Source: Escherichia phage phAPEC8. From it: a stretch of DNA of 64,000 nt. The translations under genes and the position numbers were made by a program. Each line of letters starts with the position of its first letter. Positions within the stretch are counted from its first letter, which is position 1. The stretch lies in sequence record NC_020079.1. One strand, written 5' to 3'. The notes below the pieces were generated by a model. It was not told the DNA's origin. It saw only the letters and a list, made by a program, of their open reading frames with translations, and ran no database searches. Shown piece by piece: positions 77-38,154 of this stretch.

Positions 77-2230
77 ATGAAACAAGCTATATTTACTGTC
101 ACGCGAGACAAGAGAGTAAATGCGAGTTCATTTAACTACACGACTGTTGATGGAACAGCAGTCGCTGGTAGAGATTATATTGCAAAATCGGGAACACTTG
201 TGTTCCCTGATGATGCTGATTCTGCTACCATTGTGGTTGAAGTATTTGAACGACCAAAGAACTCAATAGATCTTAACTTCTCCCTCCAAGTTTCAGGGAT
301 TAGTCAAAATAATATGATGGTTGAAACAACCATCAATTGTATTATAACTACTATCCAAGAAAATACTACTCCAATAACTTGGACTACAAAAGACGTTAAA
401 ATGTTCTCTCCTATGTATTGGACAATAGATTCTCAAGCAACGGAAAGTTGTTCTATTGTATCTCATGGAGACTCTTTTACTGCAAGATTTGTAAACAGAA
501 CAACAGCAGGTTTGGCAGGGGTTATCTGGAGCACAGTTGACAAATATGACCATAAAGGTGTTGGGTATTTACCCCACACAGATTTAAGTTCAGAGAAACT
601 TTGGTTTAAAATGGAAATTAGTCAAAACATGCCAGGTTTTAAAGAAGAACCTTTGGTGCCGACTTTGACTGTAACTCTCCTGGATAAAAGTGTTCATTAT
701 GTCAGTTTAGGATTCTACGCTTCAGATATTTCAGAAGATGGTAAAACAGCTACAATCAAGTTAGATTTTGGTAATATCTTTTCTGGCCCTAATAATGATA
801 TTCCTTTGGATATGAGTGCTGTAGATAATATTTTCTTCTCTTTGATTACAGCAAGGTATGAAGAAATAGAAGAGGTTGTACCTATTGACAGTCAAGAGGC
901 TTGGTTTACTTTCACTCTTCTTGAACCTACTTCTGGTTACAGTATGATGAAAGTCAGCAACCTTGTCCAGCCTGAACATGATATTCGCATGTGCACATCT
1001 TATGATGATATGTATAACCTGACTCCAGAGAGAGTTATTTATAATACATATGCACTAGGTTATCGTGGGATGATTAACCATTATAACGGAATGTCTCACT
1101 ATTATGAGTTCTCATGGAATGGAACATCTTGGGCTTTAAATAAATCTGTTTTCCTGAATCCGGCTACAGAAGCTTGGCTTAACAGCTTTCATTCTATAGC
1201 AAACGAGAAGGGCTACACAATAATGAACTCTTTAAGTTTTGAATTGATGAGCACAGTTTGTCCTGTAGAATGGGTCCAGCATGATTGGAACGATGCTCTT
1301 GCAGCAACAGGGTATAAACCTCCTAGTTATGTGTTGTCTCCAACTATTGACGAAGGTATGGAATATTTGCAAAATGTTATTAATAAAATAGCATCTATTT
1401 CTCAAGCTAACAATATTCCAGTCGTCATTCAAATTGGTGAACCTTGGTGGTGGTATAATACAGCAAGTAAAATGCCTTGCATATATGATTACACTACCAA
1501 ACTGGCATTCAACACAGAAACAGGTTTATTTGCACAAGATGCAGGAACAATAGATAATTATAAAACAGGAACGCCGTTTGACGAATACTATGCATTTTTG
1601 TCTCGTAAACTAGGATTAAGAGTTACAAAGTTTGCAACAGATCCCAGAGCAACTTACCCAGGAGCCAAGGTAACATTGCTTCCGTTCTTGCCATCAATTA
1701 TCGGCAACGGTTTGATGGAGAAAGTTAACTTTCCGTCTGATTACTACATTCCTGAAACTTTTGATTTTTACTGTTCAGAGTGTTACGACTGGCTTCTGGA
1801 AGGTAAAATGATGAAAGCATTCGATGCAATTACCATACCACATGAAAAATTAGGTTTTGAATATTCTGATATTCACTATCTTTCGGGTTTTGTTCCAGAT
1901 GCTACTCTTGCACCTTTGTATGGCTTCGATCCTGAATCAAACTACCGAACGTATCTTTGGAAAATGATTATAGGCAATATAGTATTGAACGCCAACAAGT
2001 TTGACGGACTTACACAATATATATGGGCCTATCCTCAAATAATGCACGATTCCATCACGGTAGTTAATTCTCAATCTCAAGTTTTCTATATGGGTAACGT
2101 GCCTTTGAACGTTTATTTACAGGATATCACTCTTAAACAGGTAAATGTTGAGATTGCCACCATAAGTGGAATTACATTAGCCACTAAATCTGGAGAAGAT
2201 TTGGTAACAACACAAAAATTTTATATATAG
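77..2230 (+). CDS. Large virion-associated protein with N-terminal Calx-beta-like domain (fibre/adhesin-like)
   Basis: 717 aa ORF; N-terminus FNYTTVDGTAVAGRDYIAKSGTLVFPDDADSATIVVEVF resembles Calx-beta motif; heads a run of fibre/spike genes. Confidence 0.45.
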   Translation: MKQAIFTVTRDKRVNASSFNYTTVDGTAVAGRDYIAKSGTLVFPDDADSATIVVEVFERPKNSIDLNFSLQVSGISQNNMMVETTINCIITTIQENTTPITWTTKDVKMFSPMYWTIDSQATESCSIVSHGDSFTARFVNRTTAGLAGVIWSTVDKYDHKGVGYLPHTDLSSEKLWFKMEISQNMPGFKEEPLVPTLTVTLLDKSVHYVSLGFYASDISEDGKTATIKLDFGNIFSGPNNDIPLDMSAVDNIFFSLITARYEEIEEVVPIDSQEAWFTFTLLEPTSGYSMMKVSNLVQPEHDIRMCTSYDDMYNLTPERVIYNTYALGYRGMINHYNGMSHYYEFSWNGTSWALNKSVFLNPATEAWLNSFHSIANEKGYTIMNSLSFELMSTVCPVEWVQHDWNDALAATGYKPPSYVLSPTIDEGMEYLQNVINKIASISQANNIPVVIQIGEPWWWYNTASKMPCIYDYTTKLAFNTETGLFAQDAGTIDNYKTGTPFDEYYAFLSRKLGLRVTKFATDPRATYPGAKVTLLPFLPSIIGNGLMEKVNFPSDYYIPETFDFYCSECYDWLLEGKMMKAFDAITIPHEKLGFEYSDIHYLSGFVPDATLAPLYGFDPESNYRTYLWKMIIGNIVLNANKFDGLTQYIWAYPQIMHDSITVVNSQSQVFYMGNVPLNVYLQDITLKQVNVEIATISGITLATKSGEDLVTTQKFYI

Positions 2231-2238
2231 GAGTAAAA

Positions 2239-5004
2239 ATGTCAACTACAATTACTAATTTACCCGAAACATCAAAAGTTAATGGTTCTGATTACCTGGT
2301 TTTAGATCAACCTGATAAGACTGTTAAAAGCACAGTTTCCAACTTTCTTACTGACACTGGGGTGGTTTTAGCCACCCAGCTAAAAGATACTTCTGGAGCT
2401 ACCAAGTATCCAGAACTTCAAATGTCACGTTGGAGAGATGAAGGTGATCCTAGAGGATGGGGAGCAGTAGGTGACGGAGCAACAGACGATACTAATGCCA
2501 TAACACAGCTTCTTGCTGCTATGCCTGATGGATGGATTGTTGATGGGCGTAATCTCACTTTCAAGGTTACAACACTACCAGATATAAGCAAGTTTAAAAA
2601 CGCTGCTTTTGTTTACGAGCGTATTGTTGGACAACCCCTTACTTACGTATCTGAGGGTTTCTTTGATGGAAATCTGACAAAAATTACGGATACACCATTT
2701 TACAATGCTTGGACGCAAGATAAGACGTTTGTTTATGACAATGTTATATATGCACCATTTATGGCTGGCGAACGTCATGGTGTACAAAACCTCCATGTAG
2801 CGTGGGTTAAATCAGGAGATGATGGACAAACTTGGTCTATGCCAGAATGGTTAACTCCAATTCATCCTGATTATAATGCCTCTTCAGCAAACAAAGTTAA
2901 CTATCATTGTATGAGTATGGGTGTATGTGGTAATCGCTTATATGCGGTGATCGAAACCCGTTACTTATCTAACATGCGATTGAAGAAAGCAGAACTTTGG
3001 TCACGTCCAATGCCTTATTATAGAAGGCCAACTGGAGGCATAACAATTAGTTCTGGGTCTACTACAGCGACAATTGTTTTAGAAAAGCATGGTCTTAAAG
3101 TTGGAGATGCTGTTAACTTTTCCAATTCAGGTGCAACTGGCGTATCTGGAAATATGACTGTTGCATCTGTAATTAACAAGGATACATTTACTGTTACATT
3201 AGCGAGTGCTGCCACATCTAATATAGATAATACAGGAACTACTTGGCATTTTGGAACACGTTTCTGGGATAGCCCTTGGGAAATTACAGAATTACCAGAT
3301 GTTGCCTATTCTACTAATGCAGATTTATGTGTTACAGAAACCCATAGTTTTACAGTTATAGATGATGATAATTACACTTTTGCTGTTGGTTATCACAATG
3401 GTGATGTTTCCCCAAGAAGATTAGGTATTTTGTATTTCAATAATGCTTACTCTGACCCAAGTTCTTTTACTCGTAGAACAATTAGTCAAGAATATGCTGA
3501 CAATGCAGCAGAACCCTGCATTAAATATTATGATGGAATTTTATATTTAACTACCAGGGGTACTTCAACTTCTGCTGCTGGTTCTACATTAGCAATGAGT
3601 ACCGACCTTGGAGAAAACTGGAACTACTTAAGATTCCCTAACAACGTTCATCATACAAACTTACCATTTGCAAAAGTTGGTAACTACCTTTATATCTTTG
3701 GTACAGAACGTTCATTCGGAGAATGGGAAGGAGAAGAACTAGATAATAGATATAAAGGCACGTATCCTCGAACGTTTATGTGCAAGATTAATGTATCTTC
3801 ATGGCCTACATCTTTATCCGATGTTCAATGGTTTAATATCACTGATCAGATGTATCAAGGGCATATTGTTAATTCTGCATGTGGTGTTGGTTCGGTATGT
3901 GTTAAAGATGGTTGGTTATATTATATCTTTGGAGGCGAAGATTTCTTATCTCCTTGGTCTATTGGGGATAATAGTAAAAAATTATGGTACAAGCATGATG
4001 GTCATCCAGCCGATTTATATAGTTATAGACTAAAGATTACCGAACATGATTTTGTATCACGTGATTTCAAATATGGAGCTACGCCAAACCGTACATTGCC
4101 TGTATCTATGGGTACAGATGGGGTAAGGCATGTCTCAGCCCCTGTAACTTTTGATAATGATGTACAAGTATACTCTTTAACAGTTACTGGCCTTGAGCAT
4201 GATGGGACACAACAATCTGCCGTTAGAATAAAATTAGATGGTGATTATGGGGTTGTTGCAAAAAATGTCCCAATAAAAAATCCTTCTAAACAGCGACTAA
4301 TCCTATGTGGAGGAGAAACTCCTTACGTTACTGATGGATCGCTATTACAACTATATGGTTCAAACCATACGTATCCAAACAGAGCAGTTTTATATGCCCC
4401 AGGAGGAGCATATACCCAAAATAATTTCATGCCGTATTTAGATGGACAAGTTGCATTAGGCGGTGCGTCTAACAGATGGTCAGAAGTGTACGCATCTACA
4501 GGAACCATTAATACTTCAGATGGAACATTAAAAACTAAACCTACAGAGATTGAAGATATTTTACTGAAAGCATGGGAAGATATTCATGTAATCTCTTACC
4601 AATGGCTTAGTGCTGTCGCGGAGAAAGGAGATTCTGCGCGTATTCATTTTGGTGTTATAGCTCAAGATGTAAGAGATATTCTGATTAATTATGGCTTAAT
4701 GGATGAAAATAGCACTGATTGTAAGTATGCTTTTCTGTGTTATGATGAATACCCTGCTATGTACGATAGTGTTGTTACGGGACAAAAAGAAATCCCTTTA
4801 TTTGATGATGAAGGGAATGTTGTAATTGATGAAGAAGGTAATCCAGTAACAATCGTAGAAGATGTTGTAGAAACTATCGAAATAATTCCAGCAGGATCGC
4901 GATGGGGTATCCGCGCTGACCAAATGTTTTTTATTGAGATGGCTTATCAACGTAAAAAGTTAAAAGCTCTTGAAGAAAGACTTGCAACCCTGGAAAGTAA
5001 ATAA
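2239..5004 (+). CDS. Tailspike/tail fibre with C-terminal intramolecular chaperone (peptidase S74-like) domain
   Basis: 921 aa; C-terminus TSDGTLKTK...ARIHFGVIAQDVRDIL...FFIEMAYQRKKLKALEERLATLESK matches the self-cleaving chaperone domain of endosialidase-type tailspikes and L-shaped fibres. Confidence 0.65.
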   Translation: MSTTITNLPETSKVNGSDYLVLDQPDKTVKSTVSNFLTDTGVVLATQLKDTSGATKYPELQMSRWRDEGDPRGWGAVGDGATDDTNAITQLLAAMPDGWIVDGRNLTFKVTTLPDISKFKNAAFVYERIVGQPLTYVSEGFFDGNLTKITDTPFYNAWTQDKTFVYDNVIYAPFMAGERHGVQNLHVAWVKSGDDGQTWSMPEWLTPIHPDYNASSANKVNYHCMSMGVCGNRLYAVIETRYLSNMRLKKAELWSRPMPYYRRPTGGITISSGSTTATIVLEKHGLKVGDAVNFSNSGATGVSGNMTVASVINKDTFTVTLASAATSNIDNTGTTWHFGTRFWDSPWEITELPDVAYSTNADLCVTETHSFTVIDDDNYTFAVGYHNGDVSPRRLGILYFNNAYSDPSSFTRRTISQEYADNAAEPCIKYYDGILYLTTRGTSTSAAGSTLAMSTDLGENWNYLRFPNNVHHTNLPFAKVGNYLYIFGTERSFGEWEGEELDNRYKGTYPRTFMCKINVSSWPTSLSDVQWFNITDQMYQGHIVNSACGVGSVCVKDGWLYYIFGGEDFLSPWSIGDNSKKLWYKHDGHPADLYSYRLKITEHDFVSRDFKYGATPNRTLPVSMGTDGVRHVSAPVTFDNDVQVYSLTVTGLEHDGTQQSAVRIKLDGDYGVVAKNVPIKNPSKQRLILCGGETPYVTDGSLLQLYGSNHTYPNRAVLYAPGGAYTQNNFMPYLDGQVALGGASNRWSEVYASTGTINTSDGTLKTKPTEIEDILLKAWEDIHVISYQWLSAVAEKGDSARIHFGVIAQDVRDILINYGLMDENSTDCKYAFLCYDEYPAMYDSVVTGQKEIPLFDDEGNVVIDEEGNPVTIVEDVVETIEIIPAGSRWGIRADQMFFIEMAYQRKKLKALEERLATLESK

Positions 5005-25602: not shown

Positions 25603-25881
25603 TTAAAATGGTTCGTTAGTCTCCATCATATATTCTGCTTCTAGTTCTTCCATATGCTTTCTAAATTGGAAAGCAATTTCTGCTACAGTTACATTTAAAT
25701 CTTTTTCAAAAACTTCTGTAGAGCCTTCATAAAAACGAATACCGTCAATTAAAAGCCCTCCGTGGTAATCCCAATCACTTTCACGAGAAAGCGGGTTAGG
25801 CTCTTCATAATAGTAATCCACCTCCACGACTAAAGCTTTCCCGTTACGAGCGGTGTATTCAAAATCAAAAGTGTTAATCAT
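25603..25881 (-). CDS. Hypothetical protein
   Basis: 92 aa, start-overlapping the upstream gene. Confidence 0.35.
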   Translation of the reverse strand: MINTFDFEYTARNGKALVVEVDYYYEEPNPLSRESDWDYHGGLLIDGIRFYEGSTEVFEKDLNVTVAEIAFQFRKHMEELEAEYMMETNEPF

Positions 25882-26825
25882 TATAGCTCCTCAAATAAAA
25901 GTCTACGACGCTCATTCAACACATCAATGTGATAATGAGTCCTGACATACTTAGCTAATGCTAATCCTTTCTCCATGCAAACATCGGGAGCACTTAATAA
26001 GTATTCCGTAATATCTTTCCACTCGGAAGGTGTTTCAGCAAAGAATAACAAATCTTTAAACTCTTGTGTATGATAATTCTCACGAGGAGAACAGATCAAA
26101 GGTAAACCCTTAGCACCTGCCTCAAGAATTTTAAGATTGCTTTTTGCATTATTAAACACGTTATCAATCAATGGCGCAAGACTGATTTGATGACCATCGT
26201 AAGATTCCATGTAGTTGGCATATGGTCTTACACCTTCATAAACACAAGTTGGTGCTACATTTTCTCTGATTACAGACCATTCACGACTACTTAAAACTTC
26301 AGAATCCCTACGAAAACCACATATTGTAAGATCTTTACCAAAATCGGGCAAGATAGCCAAGTCTTGTTTATGTGTTTCACTTCCAGCCCAGACTAATGGA
26401 GTTTTGGAGTAGCGATCACGGGTCAACACAAATTGACCTTCATCGTAAGGAAGTCCATTAGGGATTATGTGCACATTATCATTGTATTGTGAAAGTTCAA
26501 CTTGCAAAGCAGGTGTCGTAGTTGTAACGAGATCGCTGTGCTCTAAAAACCATTTTAAATGTTCACGAATACCTGATTCAAAAATACCTTCTAACATGTG
26601 TCCTTTTGGAATAACTAAAGAGTCATCCAAATCCATAACCATTTTAAAGCCTAGGTTTTTAAGGGCTAAAAAGCCCTCTTTACCTTTTGTTGGCACCCCG
26701 TTAAAAACGAAAACGTTGTGTTTAGGTTGTGAAGAGAACTGCCTTGAGTAAGGCAGCACTACTCTATGGAAATCGCAGACACTATAATTGATTCCGTTAC
26801 GATTGTCAAGAATTATTTGTCCCAT
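25881..26825 (-). CDS. GT-B fold glycosyltransferase (group 1-like), paralog 1
   Basis: 314 aa; C-terminal KILEAGAKGLPLICS resembles the group-1 donor-binding motif; paralogous to the next gene. Confidence 0.5.
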   Translation of the reverse strand: MGQIILDNRNGINYSVCDFHRVVLPYSRQFSSQPKHNVFVFNGVPTKGKEGFLALKNLGFKMVMDLDDSLVIPKGHMLEGIFESGIREHLKWFLEHSDLVTTTTPALQVELSQYNDNVHIIPNGLPYDEGQFVLTRDRYSKTPLVWAGSETHKQDLAILPDFGKDLTICGFRRDSEVLSSREWSVIRENVAPTCVYEGVRPYANYMESYDGHQISLAPLIDNVFNNAKSNLKILEAGAKGLPLICSPRENYHTQEFKDLLFFAETPSEWKDITEYLLSAPDVCMEKGLALAKYVRTHYHIDVLNERRRLLFEEL

Positions 26826-26832
26826 ACTTCAC

Positions 26833-27783
26833 CTACAAACTTTCAATAACCTGGCGTCGCAACTCGTTTGCATCTGCCAGATTATAATGTGTTCGAACAT
26901 GTTCAGCCAAGAACAAGCCACGATCTTCCCGATAGTTTGGATTGCGAAGAAGCTTAACAATTTCGTAATGCCATTCTGCTTTATTCTCTGCGTAAGCAAC
27001 AGCGCGAGCATCTACAGGGTTAAAATAAGGTAATACCTTAGAACAAACAATTGGAATACCTTTTGCTCCAGCTTCCAGGATTTTGAGATTACTTTTACAA
27101 TTATTAAAATCGTTATCTACCAAAGGAGCTATAGCAATAGCATGACTTTCGTAAACACTCATGTAATTATCTAAATCTTTTACAGCGGCTTTATATTTGG
27201 CATTTGGTAAATTTCTGCGAATCTTAATCCACTCTTGTCCTGTGATGCTTTGTGATGCTTCATATCCCGCAATAGTAAGAAGTTCATCATCGAAAGTATT
27301 AGAGACTAGTCGTAAATCGGGTTCGTGACTAGCACCGCCAGCCCATACAACAGGGGTACCGGATGAACGATCATTTGACAAAGTGAATTGTCCGCTATCA
27401 AAAGGAAGTGCATTTCGGATCACAACAACATTCCTATTTAAGTGGCGGATCTTATATGCCAAATATTCCGTAGTCACAATAACCACATCAGCAAGCTTAA
27501 CCATAGCTACAATAGCATGAGTGTTTGACTCGTATAGACTTGCTAAATAATGTTCTGGATTGAGTTGGTAGAAATCATCTAAATCTACAACAATCTTAAC
27601 ACCTTGACGTTTCAAAGATAAAACGTATTCTGCACCTTTAGAGTGGATACGGTTAAACACAACAACATCTTTCTTAGGTTGAATATTATTGTTGTTAAAG
27701 GGCATAACAATACGATGATAGTCACAACCGCTATGAGGTTTTGCATCAATTTTTAGTTTAGACCATTTTTTTTTATTTGACAT
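26833..27783 (-). CDS. GT-B fold glycosyltransferase (group 1-like), paralog 2
   Basis: 316 aa; KILEAGAKGIPIVCS; shared CD(F/Y)HR(V/I)V, VWAG, NxxxNxKSNLKILEAGAKG blocks with paralog 1. Confidence 0.5.
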   Translation of the reverse strand: MSNKKKWSKLKIDAKPHSGCDYHRIVMPFNNNNIQPKKDVVVFNRIHSKGAEYVLSLKRQGVKIVVDLDDFYQLNPEHYLASLYESNTHAIVAMVKLADVVIVTTEYLAYKIRHLNRNVVVIRNALPFDSGQFTLSNDRSSGTPVVWAGGASHEPDLRLVSNTFDDELLTIAGYEASQSITGQEWIKIRRNLPNAKYKAAVKDLDNYMSVYESHAIAIAPLVDNDFNNCKSNLKILEAGAKGIPIVCSKVLPYFNPVDARAVAYAENKAEWHYEIVKLLRNPNYREDRGLFLAEHVRTHYNLADANELRRQVIESL

Positions 27784-30350: not shown

Positions 30351-30953
30351 TTATGGACATTCATACCATTCTTTTTTACCACCAAAGGCCATCACCACAT
30401 CGCAAATATCCAGACCAGCTTTACCTACACCATATGCTTTCAGCTTCCATTCCCCATCTTCACGAACCAGCGAAGCCACGTGGCAGATTGTGTTGCCAGC
30501 TACTTCAGGAGCCAGGAAGTCAAAATCCAGAATTTCCACATTGCGCTCGGAGTCGAAGATTTTAAGCATACCTTCAGAAGCATGACCAAAACGTTTCAGA
30601 CCTGTATCATCATCAATGGTCAGAACAAAGGCAATCTCTTGTGCATCAGGAGAGATTTTAGCCAGAGTAATATCAATCTGCTCCATGCTGCCAGTTCCAT
30701 CACGAACATCGTCACCAGCGAAGGTAGAACGTTCAGGATCAAACTTGTTAGCATAGCAAACCAGATGACGTGCAGACAGCATTTCAGGATTGCCAGCGGC
30801 ATTATGACGACAAACCAGTGCACTTACATCCAGATCCAGTTTAGAATCAGATTTCCAAGAGAATTCCAGGCGCAGTTCTTTCAGAGCCGGAGCAACTTTC
30901 TTCAGGGAAATTTTTTCGCTAGAACCTTTTTTCAGGGAAATTTTATCAGTCAT
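30351..30953 (-). CDS. terD: TerD-family stress protein
   Basis: 200 aa; block-wise match to E. coli TerD: ISLKKG..ISLKK, DLDVSALVC, GDDVRDGTGS, FVLTIDD, GEWKLKAYGVG. Confidence 0.8.
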   Translation of the reverse strand: MTDKISLKKGSSEKISLKKVAPALKELRLEFSWKSDSKLDLDVSALVCRHNAAGNPEMLSARHLVCYANKFDPERSTFAGDDVRDGTGSMEQIDITLAKISPDAQEIAFVLTIDDDTGLKRFGHASEGMLKIFDSERNVEILDFDFLAPEVAGNTICHVASLVREDGEWKLKAYGVGKAGLDICDVVMAFGGKKEWYECP

Positions 30954-30968: not shown

Positions 30969-31238
30969 TTATTTAAGTGTAATACCAGTTACAGTCAATT
31001 CTACTTCCAAAAGCTTAGATGTGTTTTGGATTGATACTAATTGTGCATGATGGTTTAGTTCTACAGCAGAATAATCATTTTCCCCATCATCTACTTTTAA
31101 ATAAACAATGATTTCACTAAGGTCTAAACCATTTTCGTCAAATGCATTTTCATAGACGAAAGTATCTCCTACATCCAAATCTTTAATGGTAAGGCATCGT
31201 TTATTTACTTTTTGCTCATCAATTTCGAAGTTTAACAC
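30969..31238 (-). CDS. Small protein, paralog B of a duplicated pair
   Basis: 89 aa; shares DLDVG(D/A)TF(V/M)Y...Y(E/D)...GLD and C-terminal T(G/N)ITLK with ORF 32260-32604. Confidence 0.4.
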   Translation of the reverse strand: MLNFEIDEQKVNKRCLTIKDLDVGDTFVYENAFDENGLDLSEIIVYLKVDDGENDYSAVELNHHAQLVSIQNTSKLLEVELTVTGITLK

Positions 31239-31467
31239 TTCTTCCTCCTAATGTTATCTCCGGTTTGTATATACGAAGAATTATAGCATTTTCATTTTCT
31301 TTGTCAACCCATTCTTCATAATCGGGCCATACATGAATCTCTACTCTACTTACAATATCTTCCATCCGCACAATCCCAATGAAATACTCTTTGAGACTGC
31401 GCATAATGAAAGCTTCTCTCTCGCGCCAATAATTTTCTACGACTTGAGAGGCAAGCTCGTCGATCAT
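31219..31467 (-). CDS. Hypothetical protein
   Basis: 82 aa ORF, coupled. Confidence 0.3.
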   Translation of the reverse strand: MIDELASQVVENYWREREAFIMRSLKEYFIGIVRMEDIVSRVEIHVWPDYEEWVDKENENAIILRIYKPEITLGGRSVKLRN

Positions 31468-32258
31468 TTTTTAGCACCTACTTTAACAACCCACTCTCCG
31501 AACTCTTCAGATAAGAGTTTGTCATAAAGCTCTGAATCTGTCAAGTCTAAATCTTTAATGCCAATGAAACCAACATTATCATAAGCATTTGCCAGTTCTT
31601 TCAGGAAGCCAAACTTCTCATTACCAACGCCAACCATGAACCAATAAATAGGTTTATTCTTATTCTCTTCGATAAGACGACGAACAGCACTAGGATCACC
31701 ATTCTCACCATCCGTTTGGAAGAATACAACACCAGGGGTAACGTCAGCACCTGGTTCAGATACAGCTACAACCTTTTCACGCTCTACAGATACTGTTTCA
31801 GTTTTACCAAGCAGACGATTAAAGAAGCCTTTCTTTGGAGCCTCCTCTTGTACCACTTGTTTAGTGGTAATATATTTGGTAACAGTGCCAAAATACTCGT
31901 CGTAGATATCTGCCATTACAGGGGCGTAGTTTGTTCCACCTCCGATACGAACATTACGCATACATTTACCAACATAATCATCGTAAACGTCTGCTGTTGC
32001 TGGGGTAAGCTCTTGAGAACTCGTATTAAAGGCCCACATATCAATTTGTTCATTATCGTCGAACAGCATACCAAAAGGAAGCAGTTTACCTACAAAATCA
32101 CTCACTACCCCACTAGCATATAGACCATGCATACTACCAGAAATATCTAGAGCACATGCTACACGAAGAACAATCTTACCTTCATTCAGGTTCTTATTCT
32201 TTTTCAGAGAGAAAGCAAGGTTTTCTTGACGTTTTTTCAGGCTGATTTTCTCGGACAT
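31464..32258 (-). CDS. von Willebrand factor A domain protein (TerY-like)
   Basis: 264 aa; MIDAS elements DISGSM (DxSxS), GGGT, FFQTDGENGD; N-terminus MSEKISLKK..SLKK echoes the TerD N-terminus. Confidence 0.7.
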   Translation of the reverse strand: MSEKISLKKRQENLAFSLKKNKNLNEGKIVLRVACALDISGSMHGLYASGVVSDFVGKLLPFGMLFDDNEQIDMWAFNTSSQELTPATADVYDDYVGKCMRNVRIGGGTNYAPVMADIYDEYFGTVTKYITTKQVVQEEAPKKGFFNRLLGKTETVSVEREKVVAVSEPGADVTPGVVFFQTDGENGDPSAVRRLIEENKNKPIYWFMVGVGNEKFGFLKELANAYDNVGFIGIKDLDLTDSELYDKLLSEEFGEWVVKVGAKK

Positions 32259-32259
32259 A

Positions 32260-32604
32260 TTATTTCTCCTTCTTAAGTGTAATGTTGGTAACTTCTAAAT
32301 CTACTTCCACCATCTTTGTATCTGGTGGGATGCAATGAGTATAGCCTCGTTGTGCTAGTGATCCATTAATACAGATCGCACTGTTTGTGGAATTTTTAAT
32401 GAACACCAAGTTACGGTAGGTATCCAACCCTGCGTCTTCATAGGCATCATAATACATGAATGTGGCCCCTACGTCAAGATCTTCGAAAGCAATAGGTAAA
32501 TCCTGACTTTTTTCTTCTTGAATATTGAATCTAAACACGCATACCTCCTCTACCAATTTTGAAGCCCAAATCGTAAGCTTCCTTAGTGATCTTTTGTAAC
32601 TCAC
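32260..32604 (-). CDS. Small protein, paralog A of a duplicated pair (true start probably internal)
   Basis: 114 aa as tracked, overlapping the upstream gene by about 70 nt; paralogous core begins near FRFNIQEE. Confidence 0.4.
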   Translation of the reverse strand: MSYKRSLRKLTIWASKLVEEVCVFRFNIQEEKSQDLPIAFEDLDVGATFMYYDAYEDAGLDTYRNLVFIKNSTNSAICINGSLAQRGYTHCIPPDTKMVEVDLEVTNITLKKEK

Positions 32605-33094
32605 TTATAGGAAGTGTTACAAGAGGATCATCTTCTTCAATTTCCATCTTGTCATCTTCTGTTTCAATGAGAGTATTATGCACTTTGTGATAAGGGTTGT
32701 CAACACGTTTAAACTTATTCTTTTCTGTGCTGAAAAAACAATCTGGATCTTCTTCACCATCACCCCAACCTTGGTTAGGATCTCCGTCAGATTGTTCTGT
32801 AGGGATTTCACCTGTAAAGTACTCTTCCAGCACCATAGCGATACCGTCCCTTGGATTTGAGGAATGCATCAAATCACAAACCTTACTCCAATCCATAGCC
32901 CATTCAAATCGTTCACGAACACCATTTTCATCCTCCTTTCCAGAGAAAACACAACCATAACTATCATAGTTGCCATACATCTCTTCAATAACAACACCGT
33001 CCTTCAAAAGAAAGAGATAACAAGGTGATCCGTCGAAAGAAGTAGAAAGGGCAGCTTTGCCCGATTCTTTGCACAAAAAGCTAAAACAACCCAT
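32531..33094 (-). CDS. Hypothetical acidic protein
   Basis: 187 aa ORF. Confidence 0.35.
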   Translation of the reverse strand: MGCFSFLCKESGKAALSTSFDGSPCYLFLLKDGVVIEEMYGNYDSYGCVFSGKEDENGVRERFEWAMDWSKVCDLMHSSNPRDGIAMVLEEYFTGEIPTEQSDGDPNQGWGDGEEDPDCFFSTEKNKFKRVDNPYHKVHNTLIETEDDKMEIEEDDPLVTLPISELQKITKEAYDLGFKIGRGGMRV

Positions 33095-33658: not shown

Positions 33659-33858
33659 TACTCCTCCTCCTCCTCATTGAAGTCAATATCTGCAAGGAGT
33701 TCGAATTTACGGAAGTTACGACAACCTTCATAAATATAACAATCACGACAAACTGCTAGAACACTTGGGGGATATATGCCTCCCATCGGTGCGAATCGTT
33801 TTTCGTCATCATAACGGACACCAATGTCTTCATCAATTATATAGATACGGATTCTCAT
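33658..33858 (-). CDS. Small Cys-containing protein
   Basis: 66 aa; CRDCYIYEGC; acidic C-terminus; coupled to telA stop. Confidence 0.35.
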   Translation of the reverse strand: MRIRIYIIDEDIGVRYDDEKRFAPMGGIYPPSVLAVCRDCYIYEGCRNFRKFELLADIDFNEEEEE

Positions 33859-34967
33859 TTACCAAGCCCTCGTTTCACAGCAGCTACCATCCCGTCTTCC
33901 AGAGATTGAACTTCATTAATATAATCAACACGAGCAGCACGGGCTTCCGTATTGATGCGGTTAGTTTCTTCCAACATCTTAACCAAGTTTTCCTGATCGT
34001 GACGCAGAGTTTCAATATCCAACACTTGACGGTTAGCCAGTGCTGCTGCTTCGATCTGATTCTGTGTGGCAAGATCGCTACCCAGTTTAATTGCCAGGTT
34101 AAATTCATCAAGAACGTTATTCTGCGTCTCTGCTGCTTTCATTTGACGTAAGCTCTCGATATACATTGAGAAGTTAGCAGAGTAAGCAGGAATAACATTA
34201 TTTACTATGTTACGCGCAGATCGCATTAAGCTTGCAGAAACTTTTTGCATACCTTGTACACGCGGTCCCATTTGGACACACAGTAGGCGCAATGCTTTTA
34301 AATCTGCAATACGAATCTCCAGAAGATCCAAAGTATCTCGGATCACTTGTCGCTGTTCTACTGCATCTTCTGGAAGAGCAGCCAAAGCTTGTTCTTCTTT
34401 TTCATAGGTTGCTGTTAGAAGCTGCATATCTCGGTTCAAACTTGCAGCATATTGTCCAATAGCTTGATGTAGCTTTTCAAGATATACCAAGGAATCTTCT
34501 TCTTTGCGAATATCCATTTGAAGGTTCTTTACCAACTCTTCAATACGGTTATTAACATTATCAAACTCCCCAAACAGATCTTCTTTCATACCCATAACTT
34601 TTTTAATGAGTTTAGTAATACCCTTGCTTTGTTTAATAGAGTTTGGATCAAGTTGTTTTGCCTGTTTAATCAAAGCTGTGAGTCGTTCACTCATCTGATC
34701 GCCTTGATTACTACGTTGATGTTTTAATACCTCGGCATTCAAGGAACGCAAGGTTGTTCCTGCCTCTGCCCCAATCTCTTCAATCTCTTGTCGGGTCATA
34801 GAAGGCAAAACTGGAACTTCTTGCGGTGCCGCTGGTGCATAAACAGGACTGGCATCTAACACGCTTGGAGCGAATACAGATTTACTTGCATCGGTTGTTG
34901 CAGCAAATACGCTCATTTCAGGCTTCTTCTGACCACCAGTAGCTGCTTTTAAAAATGGACTTGTCAT
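33855..34967 (-). CDS. telA: TelA/KlaA-like toxic-anion-resistance family protein
   Basis: 370 aa, largely helical/coiled-coil, size and composition of the TelA family; sits in a Ter gene neighbourhood. Confidence 0.6.
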   Translation of the reverse strand: MTSPFLKAATGGQKKPEMSVFAATTDASKSVFAPSVLDASPVYAPAAPQEVPVLPSMTRQEIEEIGAEAGTTLRSLNAEVLKHQRSNQGDQMSERLTALIKQAKQLDPNSIKQSKGITKLIKKVMGMKEDLFGEFDNVNNRIEELVKNLQMDIRKEEDSLVYLEKLHQAIGQYAASLNRDMQLLTATYEKEEQALAALPEDAVEQRQVIRDTLDLLEIRIADLKALRLLCVQMGPRVQGMQKVSASLMRSARNIVNNVIPAYSANFSMYIESLRQMKAAETQNNVLDEFNLAIKLGSDLATQNQIEAAALANRQVLDIETLRHDQENLVKMLEETNRINTEARAARVDYINEVQSLEDGMVAAVKRGLGK

Positions 34968-35554
34968 TCTTCATTCTCCTCTTCTGCATCTCTTATATAT
35001 GGTGAAACACCGTACTCTTTAGCTACTTTAACCCAATCGTCCCATTTATACAACCATAATTTTCCTTCGGTCCCTTCTTTATCTGATTTCAACCACATAT
35101 TAGGTTGCTTACCTGGGTACATGCGATTAGGTTTACGATTATAACCTCTAACACATCTTGTCGCAAACCCATCTACCAGAACAAGAACATATTTATATTC
35201 GTGGTTCAACGGCTCTTTGGAAGTGGCTTTAGGATTAGCCCCTAATTCTGCTGCCAGTTTTTGCCAATGAGCACCGTGCCTACTAAACTTACCCATACAA
35301 CCATCAATAGCATGAGCAATTTCGTGCTTCATTGTGTCCACGATCATATCTCTTGTGGAGTTCTTATGCAAGTGCCAATTTACAACAACAATTTTATCTC
35401 GGTAGTTGCACCAACCGAAAGAGTTATTCACTTTGTTTCTAACACAAGCTTTATATCCTGCTTCACGTAACATGTTGTAGTAAACAGGAAAATCTTCTTT
35501 TATTTCCTGCATCACTTCCCACCACAAGAGTTGCAAGTCTCTCTCGGTATGCAT
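34964..35554 (-). CDS. SprT-like zinc metallopeptidase
   Basis: 196 aa; HEIAHAI (HExxH) followed by GKFSRHGAHW. Confidence 0.5.
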   Translation of the reverse strand: MHTERDLQLLWWEVMQEIKEDFPVYYNMLREAGYKACVRNKVNNSFGWCNYRDKIVVVNWHLHKNSTRDMIVDTMKHEIAHAIDGCMGKFSRHGAHWQKLAAELGANPKATSKEPLNHEYKYVLVLVDGFATRCVRGYNRKPNRMYPGKQPNMWLKSDKEGTEGKLWLYKWDDWVKVAKEYGVSPYIRDAEEENEE

Positions 35555-36165: not shown

Positions 36166-36603
36166 TTAACGTCGCTTGCTACGAGATGAACTCTTTTTAC
36201 TTAAAGGGCTATTGTAAGATTTACGAGTTGTATAGCTACTATTTGTTTTAAAAGTTTGTCTCGGCTTTTCATAAGTTTTTATCTCTTGTTTAGGCTTACC
36301 ATAAAAATTAGTTTTCGGTTTAGGTGTATTATAATGCTTATTAATAATCGTTCTGTTATCGTTATAATCCCCACTGCTACGATTACTACCACCACTCATC
36401 ATATGCCCTAACAACATACCTGTAGCAAACTCACCAACACCGCTACTACTAGAACCGCCACCATTGTTGATAATAGTTGTATCTCCGTCAGATCCTTGTT
36501 GAGCGTATTGTTGAGGAGGTTGTTGGTATTGTGCAGGATTTGTTTCATCCTCGCAAGCTGTTAAAAAGATACAACCAATTAAAATCAGGGCTAGTTTTTT
36601 CAT
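36166..36603 (-). CDS. Lipoprotein with Gly/Ser-rich region
   Basis: Start at ATG behind GAGGAAAG; signal MKKLALILIGCIFLTAC (lipobox LTAC); Q/G/S-rich linker. Confidence 0.5.
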   Translation of the reverse strand: MKKLALILIGCIFLTACEDETNPAQYQQPPQQYAQQGSDGDTTIINNGGGSSSSGVGEFATGMLLGHMMSGGSNRSSGDYNDNRTIINKHYNTPKPKTNFYGKPKQEIKTYEKPRQTFKTNSSYTTRKSYNSPLSKKSSSRSKRR

Positions 36604-36790
36604 ATTTGCTTTCCTCATTTTGACTATTAATACATCTGTGTTTGAAATCTCCAGAGAAGCAATAAAGTTGCTCTCCATCTCGGTATAAACTCACTTTACT
36701 GCCGTTGATTACGCTTGTCAATACAAAAATTACAACAAACAACCCTATTGCAAAACAAATATTTTCAAACACAACCAACAAGTATTTCAT
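36545..36790 (-). CDS. Small membrane protein
   Basis: 81 aa; hydrophobic N-terminus LLVVFENICFAIGLFVVIFVL. Confidence 0.3.
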   Translation of the reverse strand: MKYLLVVFENICFAIGLFVVIFVLTSVINGSKVSLYRDGEQLYCFSGDFKHRCINSQNEESKYEKTSPDFNWLYLFNSLRG

Positions 36791-37179: not shown

Positions 37180-38154
37180 TTAAACAGCAGCTTCTTCTTT
37201 TTCAGGGAAGATAAAGCTTGCAATAACACCAAGAGCTAATGTGCCTAGAACAATCATCAGACTTACGTTAGGGGAAATATCATGCGGGAGGAATGACCAC
37301 TTGGCATGAAGTGTTTCACCGAACGGGTGATACATAAGTTTAGCACCGACAAATACCAGAACCACAGCAACAGCTTTCTCTAAGTGAACCAGATATTTCA
37401 CAGCCACACTTAACACAAAGAAAAGTGCACGTAAACCAAGAACAGCCATCAGCATTGCAGAATAAACTAGCAGAGGTTCTTGTGTCACACCGATCACAGC
37501 CGGAACTGAATCAAAAGAGAAGACAATATCTGTAAGCTCAATAACAAACACACAAAGAAGAGCAGGAGTTGCATATTTAATACCATTCTTAATGGTGATG
37601 AACTTTTCACCATCTAGTGCATTGTGCACAGGCAGAACTTTACCTACTAAACGAACAGCCCAATGCTTAGAGTAATCAATATCCTCTTCTTCGTCACCAC
37701 CTTTGATGATAGCCACGGCAGACCAAGCTACAATCAAACCGAACAACACTTGGACCGACCAATGAAGGTTAAACAAAGCGGTCCCTGCTGCAACAAAAAT
37801 ACCTCGGAAGACAATGGCTCCTGCAATCCCCCAAAGTAAAATCTTATGTTGGAGATGTGTGCTCTTAATTCCAAAGCTTGCAAAAATTGCCATGAACACC
37901 ATCAAGTTATCTACAGAAAGACTCTTTTCCAACACATAGCCACTTAGGAAAAGCGCGGCAAACTCTTTACCATGTTCTACCCAAATGAATGCGTAATATC
38001 CTAAAGCTAAAGCAATCCAAAAAACAGACCAAAGCAAAGCAGATTTAATTCCAATTTCTTTATTCTCTTTATGACCAAAGAAATCGATACCAATAGACAA
38101 TGCTAAAATACCAACCAAAACAACTACATCAATAATGGGGAAACCAAGTTGCAT
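37180..38154 (-). CDS. terC: TerC-family integral membrane protein
   Basis: 324 aa; multiple TM helices; EKSLSVDN motif characteristic of TerC. Confidence 0.75.
   Translation of the reverse strand: MQLGFPIIDVVVLVGILALSIGIDFFGHKENKEIGIKSALLWSVFWIALALGYYAFIWVEHGKEFAALFLSGYVLEKSLSVDNLMVFMAIFASFGIKSTHLQHKILLWGIAGAIVFRGIFVAAGTALFNLHWSVQVLFGLIVAWSAVAIIKGGDEEEDIDYSKHWAVRLVGKVLPVHNALDGEKFITIKNGIKYATPALLCVFVIELTDIVFSFDSVPAVIGVTQEPLLVYSAMLMAVLGLRALFFVLSVAVKYLVHLEKAVAVVLVFVGAKLMYHPFGETLHAKWSFLPHDISPNVSLMIVLGTLALGVIASFIFPEKEEAAV

Follow-up and report, generated by a model that had tools for sequence, protein, structure and literature searches.

Two paralogous small genes embedded in the vWA-TerD core of a phage-borne Ter cluster in Phapecoctavirus

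Introduction

Ter clusters, with components such as TerC, TerD, TelA, and TerF, are found widely, in bacteria, on plasmids, and in large phages, and how their products work together is poorly understood. Here, we analyze a stretch of 64,000 nucleotides (nt) from Escherichia phage phAPEC8 (NC_020079.1), referred to below as the window, whose source is a Phapecoctavirus (Stephanstirmvirinae), a myophage of Escherichia coli with a genome of ~150 kb. The region around positions 30,969 to 32,604 is the vWA-TerD core of an abbreviated, phage-borne Ter cluster, and two paralogous genes for proteins of ~90 amino acids (aa), which we call small A and small B, are embedded in it. An original prediction, made from the letters of the window, had read this arrangement as a duplicated two-gene unit, a small partner followed by an effector headed by an ISLKK peptide, that diverged into a TerD arm and a vWA arm.

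Results

Organization of the locus

The cluster lies entirely on the minus strand (Table 1). In the order of transcription, TerC is followed by several small open reading frames (ORFs), an SprT-like peptidase, TelA, and four small ORFs, after which come a 187-aa ORF, small A, the vWA-TerF-like gene, and an 82-aa ORF; this last is followed by small B, TerD, and then a SleB-like hydrolase. One small gene therefore stands directly before the vWA gene and the other directly before TerD, exactly where they had been predicted. The 2.8 kb around the small genes share 99% identity with Escherichia phage vB_EcoM_UP17 and 98 to 99% identity with some 60 further Phapecoctavirus genomes. The annotation of phage ESCO13 lists these genes as hypothetical proteins, save three that are named "tellurium resistance protein TerE," "TelA superfamily protein," and "integral membrane protein TerC."

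Table 1. Features of the Ter cluster and their positions in the window (RBS, ribosome-binding site; MIDAS, metal ion-dependent adhesion site).
Feature	Position	Strand	Remarks
TerD-domain protein, 200 aa	30351-30953	-	PF02342, E = 3.2e-28, 98.9 bits vs. cut-off 25.3, residues 5-179
TerD head, residues 4-19, KISLKKGSSEKISLKK	30897-30944	-	doubled h-x-L-x-K within the TerD domain
Small protein B, 89 aa, GTG start	30969-31238	-	directly upstream of TerD; paralog of A; AGGAGG RBS 5 nt before GTG
82-aa ORF (phrog_22387)	31219-31467	-	overlaps vWA stop (ATGA) and small B start (by 20 nt)
Putative promoter, perfect sigma-70 consensus with extended -10	31280-31307	-	TTGACA, 16 nt, TGnTATAAT; 12/12 hexamer matches
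vWA-TerF-like protein, 264 aa	31464-32258	-	PF10138, E = 2.1e-37, 129.7 bits vs. cut-off 29.4; complete MIDAS residues
vWA head, residues 4-20, KISLKKRQENLAFSLKK	32199-32249	-	doubled h-x-L-x-K
Small protein A, 92 aa, GTG start	32260-32538	-	directly upstream of the vWA gene; phrog_11278
187-aa ORF	32531-33094	-	upstream of small A
Near-consensus sigma-70-like site	32675-32703	-	~135 nt upstream of small A; TTGACA, 17 nt, CATAAT; 11/12, consensus match
TelA	33855-34967	-	same Ter cluster; PF05816, E = 3.2e-33
SprT-like metallopeptidase	34964-35554	-	PF10263, E = 4e-9
TerC membrane protein	37180-38154	-	upstream end of the Ter cluster; PF03741, E = 3e-40

The small genes are paralogs

Small A and small B align over 89 residues without a single gap at 34% identity (BLASTP E = 4e-14), and their Smith-Waterman score of 128 compares with 25.7 ± 4.5 in composition-matched shuffles (z = 22.6; reached by 0 of 2,000). 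Both match phrog_11278, a PHROGs family that carries no annotation, over their full length (small B, residues 1 to 89, E = 7e-45; small A, residues 1 to 92, E = 3e-51). The paralogy that had been claimed for the two small ORFs is certain. The upstream ORF as it was first listed (32260-32604, 114 aa) is 22 codons too long, as the start shared by all homologs and by the ESCO13 annotation corresponds to the GTG at 32538. This codon has a GAGGAGG 7 nt ahead of it and overlaps the stop of the 187-aa ORF; judged from these sequence features, it is most likely the true start of small A, giving a protein of 92 aa.

The AlphaFold2 (AF2) model of small A agrees with the BFVD model of K7QLS7, an 89-aa protein of phAPEC8 that has the length of a B-type copy and 35% identity to the modeled small A, at a template modeling score of 0.79 to 0.82. 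The small proteins are modeled as an SH3-like β-barrel, a generic fold match whose other small barrels include the C-terminal domain of ribosomal protein L2, KOW, Tudor, FeoA, and the C-terminal domain of DtxR/IdeR. Searches of Pfam, NCBIfam, and PADLOC gave no match for the small proteins or the 82-aa ORF, and PADLOC-DB 2.0 likewise gave none for the vWA, TerD, TelA, and TerC proteins.

The small gene was found in one phage group and, where its context is readable, beside vWA or TerD

A word-seeded search of 5.8 billion proteins returned 23 matches to the small family, nearly all of ~90 aa, and a HMMER scan of 1.84 billion representatives returned 24 matches at an E value of ≤0.001. Of five long proteins matched in the HMMER scan, the four that were examined matched over partial stretches of Ig, fn3, or CARDB repeats and were rejected as noise from β-strand repeats. 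In these two protein searches, all contigs of informative length that carry the family came from a single group of phages with genomes of 140 to 150 kb. The small gene was absent from all 64 bacterial vWA-TerF-like loci, so the pairing that was to be sought in bacterial ter loci does not occur in them, and it was absent from 49 of 49 further viral loci.

Wherever its context is readable, the small gene directly abuts vWA and/or TerD and lies nowhere else, in one of three arrangements. The order small-vWA-TerD is found in Justusliebigvirus (phi92-like) and Klebsiella phage 05F01; vWA-small-TerD is found in more distant phages (loci L009-L013 and L018); and Phapecoctavirus-type loci, that of the window included, have small-vWA-(81- or 82-aa ORF)-small-TerD. 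The plain vWA-TerD pair without a small gene is common (L005, L015, L019-L027, L029, and L042-L043).

In a midpoint-rooted neighbor-joining tree of these 90-aa proteins, built without support values, all pre-vWA copies form one clade and the pre-TerD copies of Phapecoctavirus form its sister clade. The small genes of distant phages, one copy each, branch outside as outgroups, and all those with a readable context stand between vWA and TerD. We conclude firmly that only the small gene was copied, in a single-gene duplication. A larger duplicated unit was considered and rejected, as the 82-aa ORF does not resemble the 187-aa ORF that precedes small A. That the ancestral position was between vWA and TerD, with the pre-vWA copy as the duplicate, is a tentative conclusion, because the tree has no support values.

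Gene junctions are tight, and small B-TerD probably has its own promoter

From the 187-aa ORF through TerD, consecutive genes overlap or are separated by gaps of ≤15 nt. The 3' end of small A reads ...AAG AAG GAG AAA TAA T ATG, and the RBS of the vWA gene, AAGGAG, is encoded by the KKEK tail of small A (32263-32274, minus strand); the tail may therefore be constrained by the initiation of vWA translation and not by protein function. Pre-vWA copies of the small protein all end in ..EK, and pre-TerD copies are without such a tail. The 82-aa ORF is confined to Phapecoctavirus-type loci, being present in L001, L003, L007, L008, and L014 and absent from the inspected loci of the other arrangements. 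Between small B and TerD there is a gap of 15 nt, which includes a GAGGAG.

The perfect sigma-70 consensus (Table 1) lies within the 82-aa ORF, with 41 nt between it and the start of small B; no second one exists in the 64-kb window, where 0.07 would be expected by chance. Diverged Phapecoctavirus-type loci keep the site in the same place (L001, L003, L007, L008, L014, and L060), among them that of phage phiWec181 (L003), whose small B is just 43% identical to that of the window. As the sole perfect consensus, conserved in diverged relatives, it makes it probable that small B and TerD are served by a strong promoter of their own. The predicted picture of two pairs, each a small gene followed by its effector, stands as far as organization is concerned, with tight junctions and a separate putative promoter; what does not stand is a common evolutionary origin of the two effectors.

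The heads of TerD and vWA are alike and are signatures of their families

The two effectors start with similar peptides (MTDKISLKKGSSEKISLKK in TerD and MSEKISLKKRQENLAFSLKK in vWA), as had been noticed before. Residues 1 to 25 of the two proteins align with a score of 39, against 19.7 ± 3.9 in shuffles (z = 4.9; reached by 4 of 5,000), and an equal likeness to the TerD head arose anywhere in 3 of 2,000 shuffles of the whole vWA protein. A profile-profile comparison with hhalign places TerD positions 2 to 22 onto the vWA head over 21 columns (P = 7.8e-5; probability, 62%). The likeness is real but short. The small proteins and the heads alike thus exceed the composition-matched shuffles by which the original prediction was to be checked. 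The C-terminal ITLK(K) of the small proteins was considered as a third copy of the head motif and rejected; it is kept only in close relatives, and the tail of small A coincides with the vWA RBS.

Beyond ~21 N-terminal columns, nothing else of the two effectors aligns, and they belong to separate old families with unrelated folds. The TerD protein is a β-sandwich whose closest solved structure is 2KXT; the family profile matches 2KXT from the first residue of the chain (E = 7e-75), and the doubled h-x-L-x-K motif lies inside both this match and the Pfam match, which starts at residue 5 (profile position 3). In TerD, L7, K9, L17, and K19 are invariant across 25 TerDs, and the doubled motif is the start of the TerD domain itself.

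The vWA protein carries the MIDAS pattern DxSGS...T...D, the residues of a predicted metal site, with DISGS at residues 38 to 42. L7, K9, L18, and K20 of its head are invariant in 30 aligned homologs, down to 38% identity, and are as conserved as the MIDAS residues (D38, G41, S42, T109, D183, and G184, invariant in 30 homologs). Every complete viral vWA-TerF-like protein among >40 distinct ones listed has a doubled h-x-L-x-K ~15 to 25 residues before the MIDAS strand; three further ORFs are cut by contig ends and lack the head region, and one complete homolog (L004, with the MIDAS sequence DISSS) was not part of the listing. Standalone bacterial vWA-TerF-like proteins have two to four tandem h-x-L-x-K units (e.g., IDLRK...ISLSK...ISLDK), and the bacterial TerD+vWA fusions that we examined have such units in the linker preceding the vWA domain. 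Throughout the vWA-TerF-like family, the doubled motif of vWA forms an invariant extension at the N terminus.

The shared peptide is therefore a signature of both families and no trace of a local duplication. Nor is it tied to a small partner, as the reading of a duplicated two-gene unit would require, since the motif is present in every complete vWA-TerF-like and TerD homolog listed, and the viral vWA heads that have it include loci without the small gene and without an adjacent TerD. An AF2 model of TerD and vWA joined by a linker gives residues 7 to 20 of vWA as a helix (predicted local distance difference test [pLDDT], ~84) and the TerD head as short strands; a hydrophobic-moment analysis of the vWA head did not separate helix from strand. 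Heads with multiple units occur among the bacterial and viral relatives L058-L122 (e.g., L066:4995-5753 and L063:4377-5711), and fusions in reverse order, with vWA N-terminal and TerD C-terminal, were seen in L075 and L122, the usual order being TerD-vWA.

Comparison with bacterial Ter clusters

Bacterial ter/tel stress-response clusters hold TerD paralogs, TerC, TelA, and TerF, the last a TerD+vWA protein. Of the families known from these clusters (terZABCDEF), TerC, TelA, TerD, and the vWA-TerF-like family are found in the window in one co-oriented cluster, and in many bacterial ter clusters and phage loci vWA adjoins TerD as it does here; vWA followed by TerD is the conserved core. Bacterial Ter members also have the same doubled h-x-L-x-K heads as the window proteins. 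In contrast to bacterial TerF, which is a fusion, the vWA and TerD of the window are separate genes, between which lie the 82-aa ORF and small B. The window also differs in having an SprT-like peptidase adjoining TelA, and, compared with the 64 bacterial loci, it alone has the small gene, inserted in two copies. Among the window ORFs scanned, which are part of those of the cluster, there were no matches for TerB, a phosphoribosyltransferase, or a HAD enzyme. Abbreviated Ter operons have been reported in jumbo and related phages (PMC7824862).

The closest solved structures to the vWA protein are the vWA domains of the Copine/BONZAI and RGLG types, which are weakly similar in sequence at E values of ~0.006 to 0.009 over the C-terminal half, and Pfam adds a weak match to Copine. 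At an E value of ≤0.01, the solved structures found for vWA are copine-type only, and none covers the N-terminal head.

Further observations at and near the cluster

SprT-like peptidases are not known as a standard Ter component; the gene overlaps the start of TelA, and the same SprT-TelA adjacency is seen in L007. L005, from a distant 144-kb phage, has the same TerC ... TelA ... vWA-TerD order, with an RNA ligase gene (2133-3383) directly upstream of TelA at the place of the SprT-like peptidase. A 110-aa ORF in the pre-vWA slot of L005 was rejected as a member of the small family; it shows no likeness by eye, and the family hidden Markov model does not match it. In Neobacillus vireti (L006:7404-11928), the genes that come after TerD, vWA, and TerC resemble those for ribose-phosphate pyrophosphokinase (a faint Pfam match) and nicotinamide/nicotinate phosphoribosyltransferase, and the region holds phage-type genes (integrase and replication protein O).

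Between TerC and TelA, the ORF at 36166-36678 (minus strand) encodes MKKLALILIGCIFLTAC, which has a lipobox and reads as a lipoprotein-type signal; a basic tail rich in Gly and Ser comes after it, and the product is possibly a phage lipoprotein. A second tandem duplication lies near the Ter cluster: the adjacent genes at 25881-26825 and 26833-27783 (minus strand; 314 and 316 aa) are paralogs with 41% identity (E = 1e-77), and their counterpart in vB_Eco_PATM is annotated as a group 1 glycosyltransferase. The GC skew of the window switches sign near 18 kb and near 52 kb; all ORFs read at 26 to 38 kb are on the minus strand, in a stretch of negative skew.

Discussion

The explanation that accounts best for our observations, to which we give a probability of about 0.6, is that the small gene alone was duplicated within the vWA-TerD core and that its copies act as accessory subunits in a module with an extra promoter and a role in the envelope or in stress. 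The small gene would originally have stood between vWA and TerD, would then have been copied on its own to the pre-vWA position in an ancestor of the Stephanstirmvirinae, and the pre-TerD copy would later have been lost in the phi92-like and 05F01 lineages. We suggest that, in one phage group, the small proteins serve the vWA/TerD part of the Ter machinery as SH3-like accessory or adaptor subunits, and that the copies probably specialized after the duplication, A with vWA and B with TerD, each being co-translated with its partner. From the promoter before small B, the small B-TerD pair would probably be expressed additionally and under separate control. The module itself, by analogy, probably changes the envelope of the infected cell or the way the cell handles ions and stress, for example, as a guard against superinfecting phages; a role of phage Ter genes in envelope and stress physiology, possibly in superinfection exclusion, is a published proposal (PMC7824862).

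Several points weigh against this explanation. The proposed role of phage Ter genes is a hypothesis from the literature and not the outcome of an experiment; the putative promoter is known as a consensus match only; which copy came first was read from a midpoint-rooted neighbor-joining tree of 90-aa proteins without support values; and most relatives have vWA and TerD but no small gene, which is therefore dispensable for the core function.

An ancestral two-gene unit that was duplicated as a whole, with the effectors diverging into TerD and vWA, would account for the two parallel small-gene/effector pairs and for the similar effector N termini, but we regard it as very improbable, since the effectors are of different Pfam families and unrelated folds and are alike over ~21 columns, only the small genes being paralogous; since the head motifs are invariant also in bacteria and phages that have no small gene; and since the vWA-TerD pair exists with no small gene or with a single one. 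That the small ORFs are phage "filler" genes, placed in a Ter cluster by chance and without a functional link to vWA or TerD, is somewhat easier to entertain, as they are absent from most vWA/TerD loci, match no known domain, and have a generic fold match. This account nevertheless appears improbable, because the gene abuts vWA and/or TerD in every readable locus, in three arrangements and nowhere else, because the junctions overlap or nearly so, with the last codons of small A carrying the vWA RBS, and because both copies have been retained while diverging to 34% identity.

Two further readings concern the heads. Either the heads are a functional element common to TerD and vWA, docking to each other or to a common partner and co-evolving in each genome, or the vWA head is a relic of a TerD N terminus, e.g., the decayed TerD domain of a TerF-type fusion ancestor, with no current shared function. 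The former is a possibility that we hold tentatively, and well short of even odds. Some genomes have look-alike heads, such as MAKVSLKK and MAKVSLKK (L019), FELDLTK and FTLDLTK (L057), or MEMLNLSK and MELLNLNK (L058), and when co-variation was scored as a BLOSUM sum over three variable positions of both motifs in 14 phage lineages, clustered at 60% identity, matched pairs reached 12.8 versus 7.5 for mismatched pairs (permutation p = 2e-5; p = 5e-4 for 8 deep clusters). The excess is 5.25, against 0.04 ± 0.8 for column pairs drawn at random from the two proteins (reached by 0 of 200,000 draws), and four of six positions have a p of ≤0.03 versus column pairs of similar residue repertoire. Where the residues are identical, the codons are often different (e.g., Ser AGC versus TCC), so the likeness is held at the protein level, and recent gene conversion was rejected as its cause; vWA and TerD are, moreover, neighbors in many loci, and many bacteria have them fused. 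However, the p values are post hoc, the hypothesis having been formed on the same 14 lineages, phylogenetic non-independence was controlled only in part, and replication is weak, with p = 0.35 in 6 new phage lineages and 8.9 versus 6.9 (p = 0.08) in 11 new phage plus bacterial lineages. An AF2 run on a TerD-(GGGGS)5-vWA linker fusion, from a paired alignment that included natural fusions, showed no sign of a complex, with a predicted TM score of 0.52 where two independent domains would give ~0.5 by our rough estimate from their sizes; the individual domains were modeled well (mean pLDDT, 84), and the output gave no predicted aligned error or coordinates, so a weak interface could have been missed. 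The predicted helix of one head and short strands of the other also count against a shared element, as does the loss of the TerD head's lysines in many fusions. The relic reading appears doubtful to us. The profile-profile match fits it, as do the TerD+vWA fusions, which are more frequent in the retrieved loci than any other bacterial form and have the motif in the linker of those examined, and the two to four tandem units of bacterial heads. That match, however, spans 21 columns at 62% probability, in a simple amphipathic pattern that could have arisen independently; the modeled secondary structures of the two heads differ; and a functionless relic would not stay invariant at L7, K9, L18, and K20, which are as conserved as the MIDAS residues.

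One may also combine the two themes and suppose that the heads are a co-evolving docking element, for each other or for a common receptor, and that the SH3-like small proteins are lineage-specific receptors or chaperones, one per head, the small protein having been duplicated in Stephanstirmvirinae-like phages to give each head its own. This speculation is, in our judgment, unlikely. If it were true, the docking heads would be the first concrete and testable assembly rule for the poorly understood Ter machinery.

Under the favored explanation, that of a duplicated small gene with accessory function, the locus is a phage variant of the Ter cluster in which the vWA-TerD pair gained a small partner, predicted to be a β-barrel, that was later duplicated to give one copy per effector. 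The finding is a modest one, with the genes already deposited as hypothetical proteins and both copies already in one PHROG family, and it would be of greater interest if the idea of docking heads holds up. To phrog_11278 it adds a fixed association with vWA and TerD, three gene arrangements, and a predicted SH3-like barrel. A head motif that extends family-wide in two unrelated Ter proteins, with possible co-variation, suggests a specific element to mutate, and the locus of the window offers a compact system for asking who binds whom in the Ter machinery.

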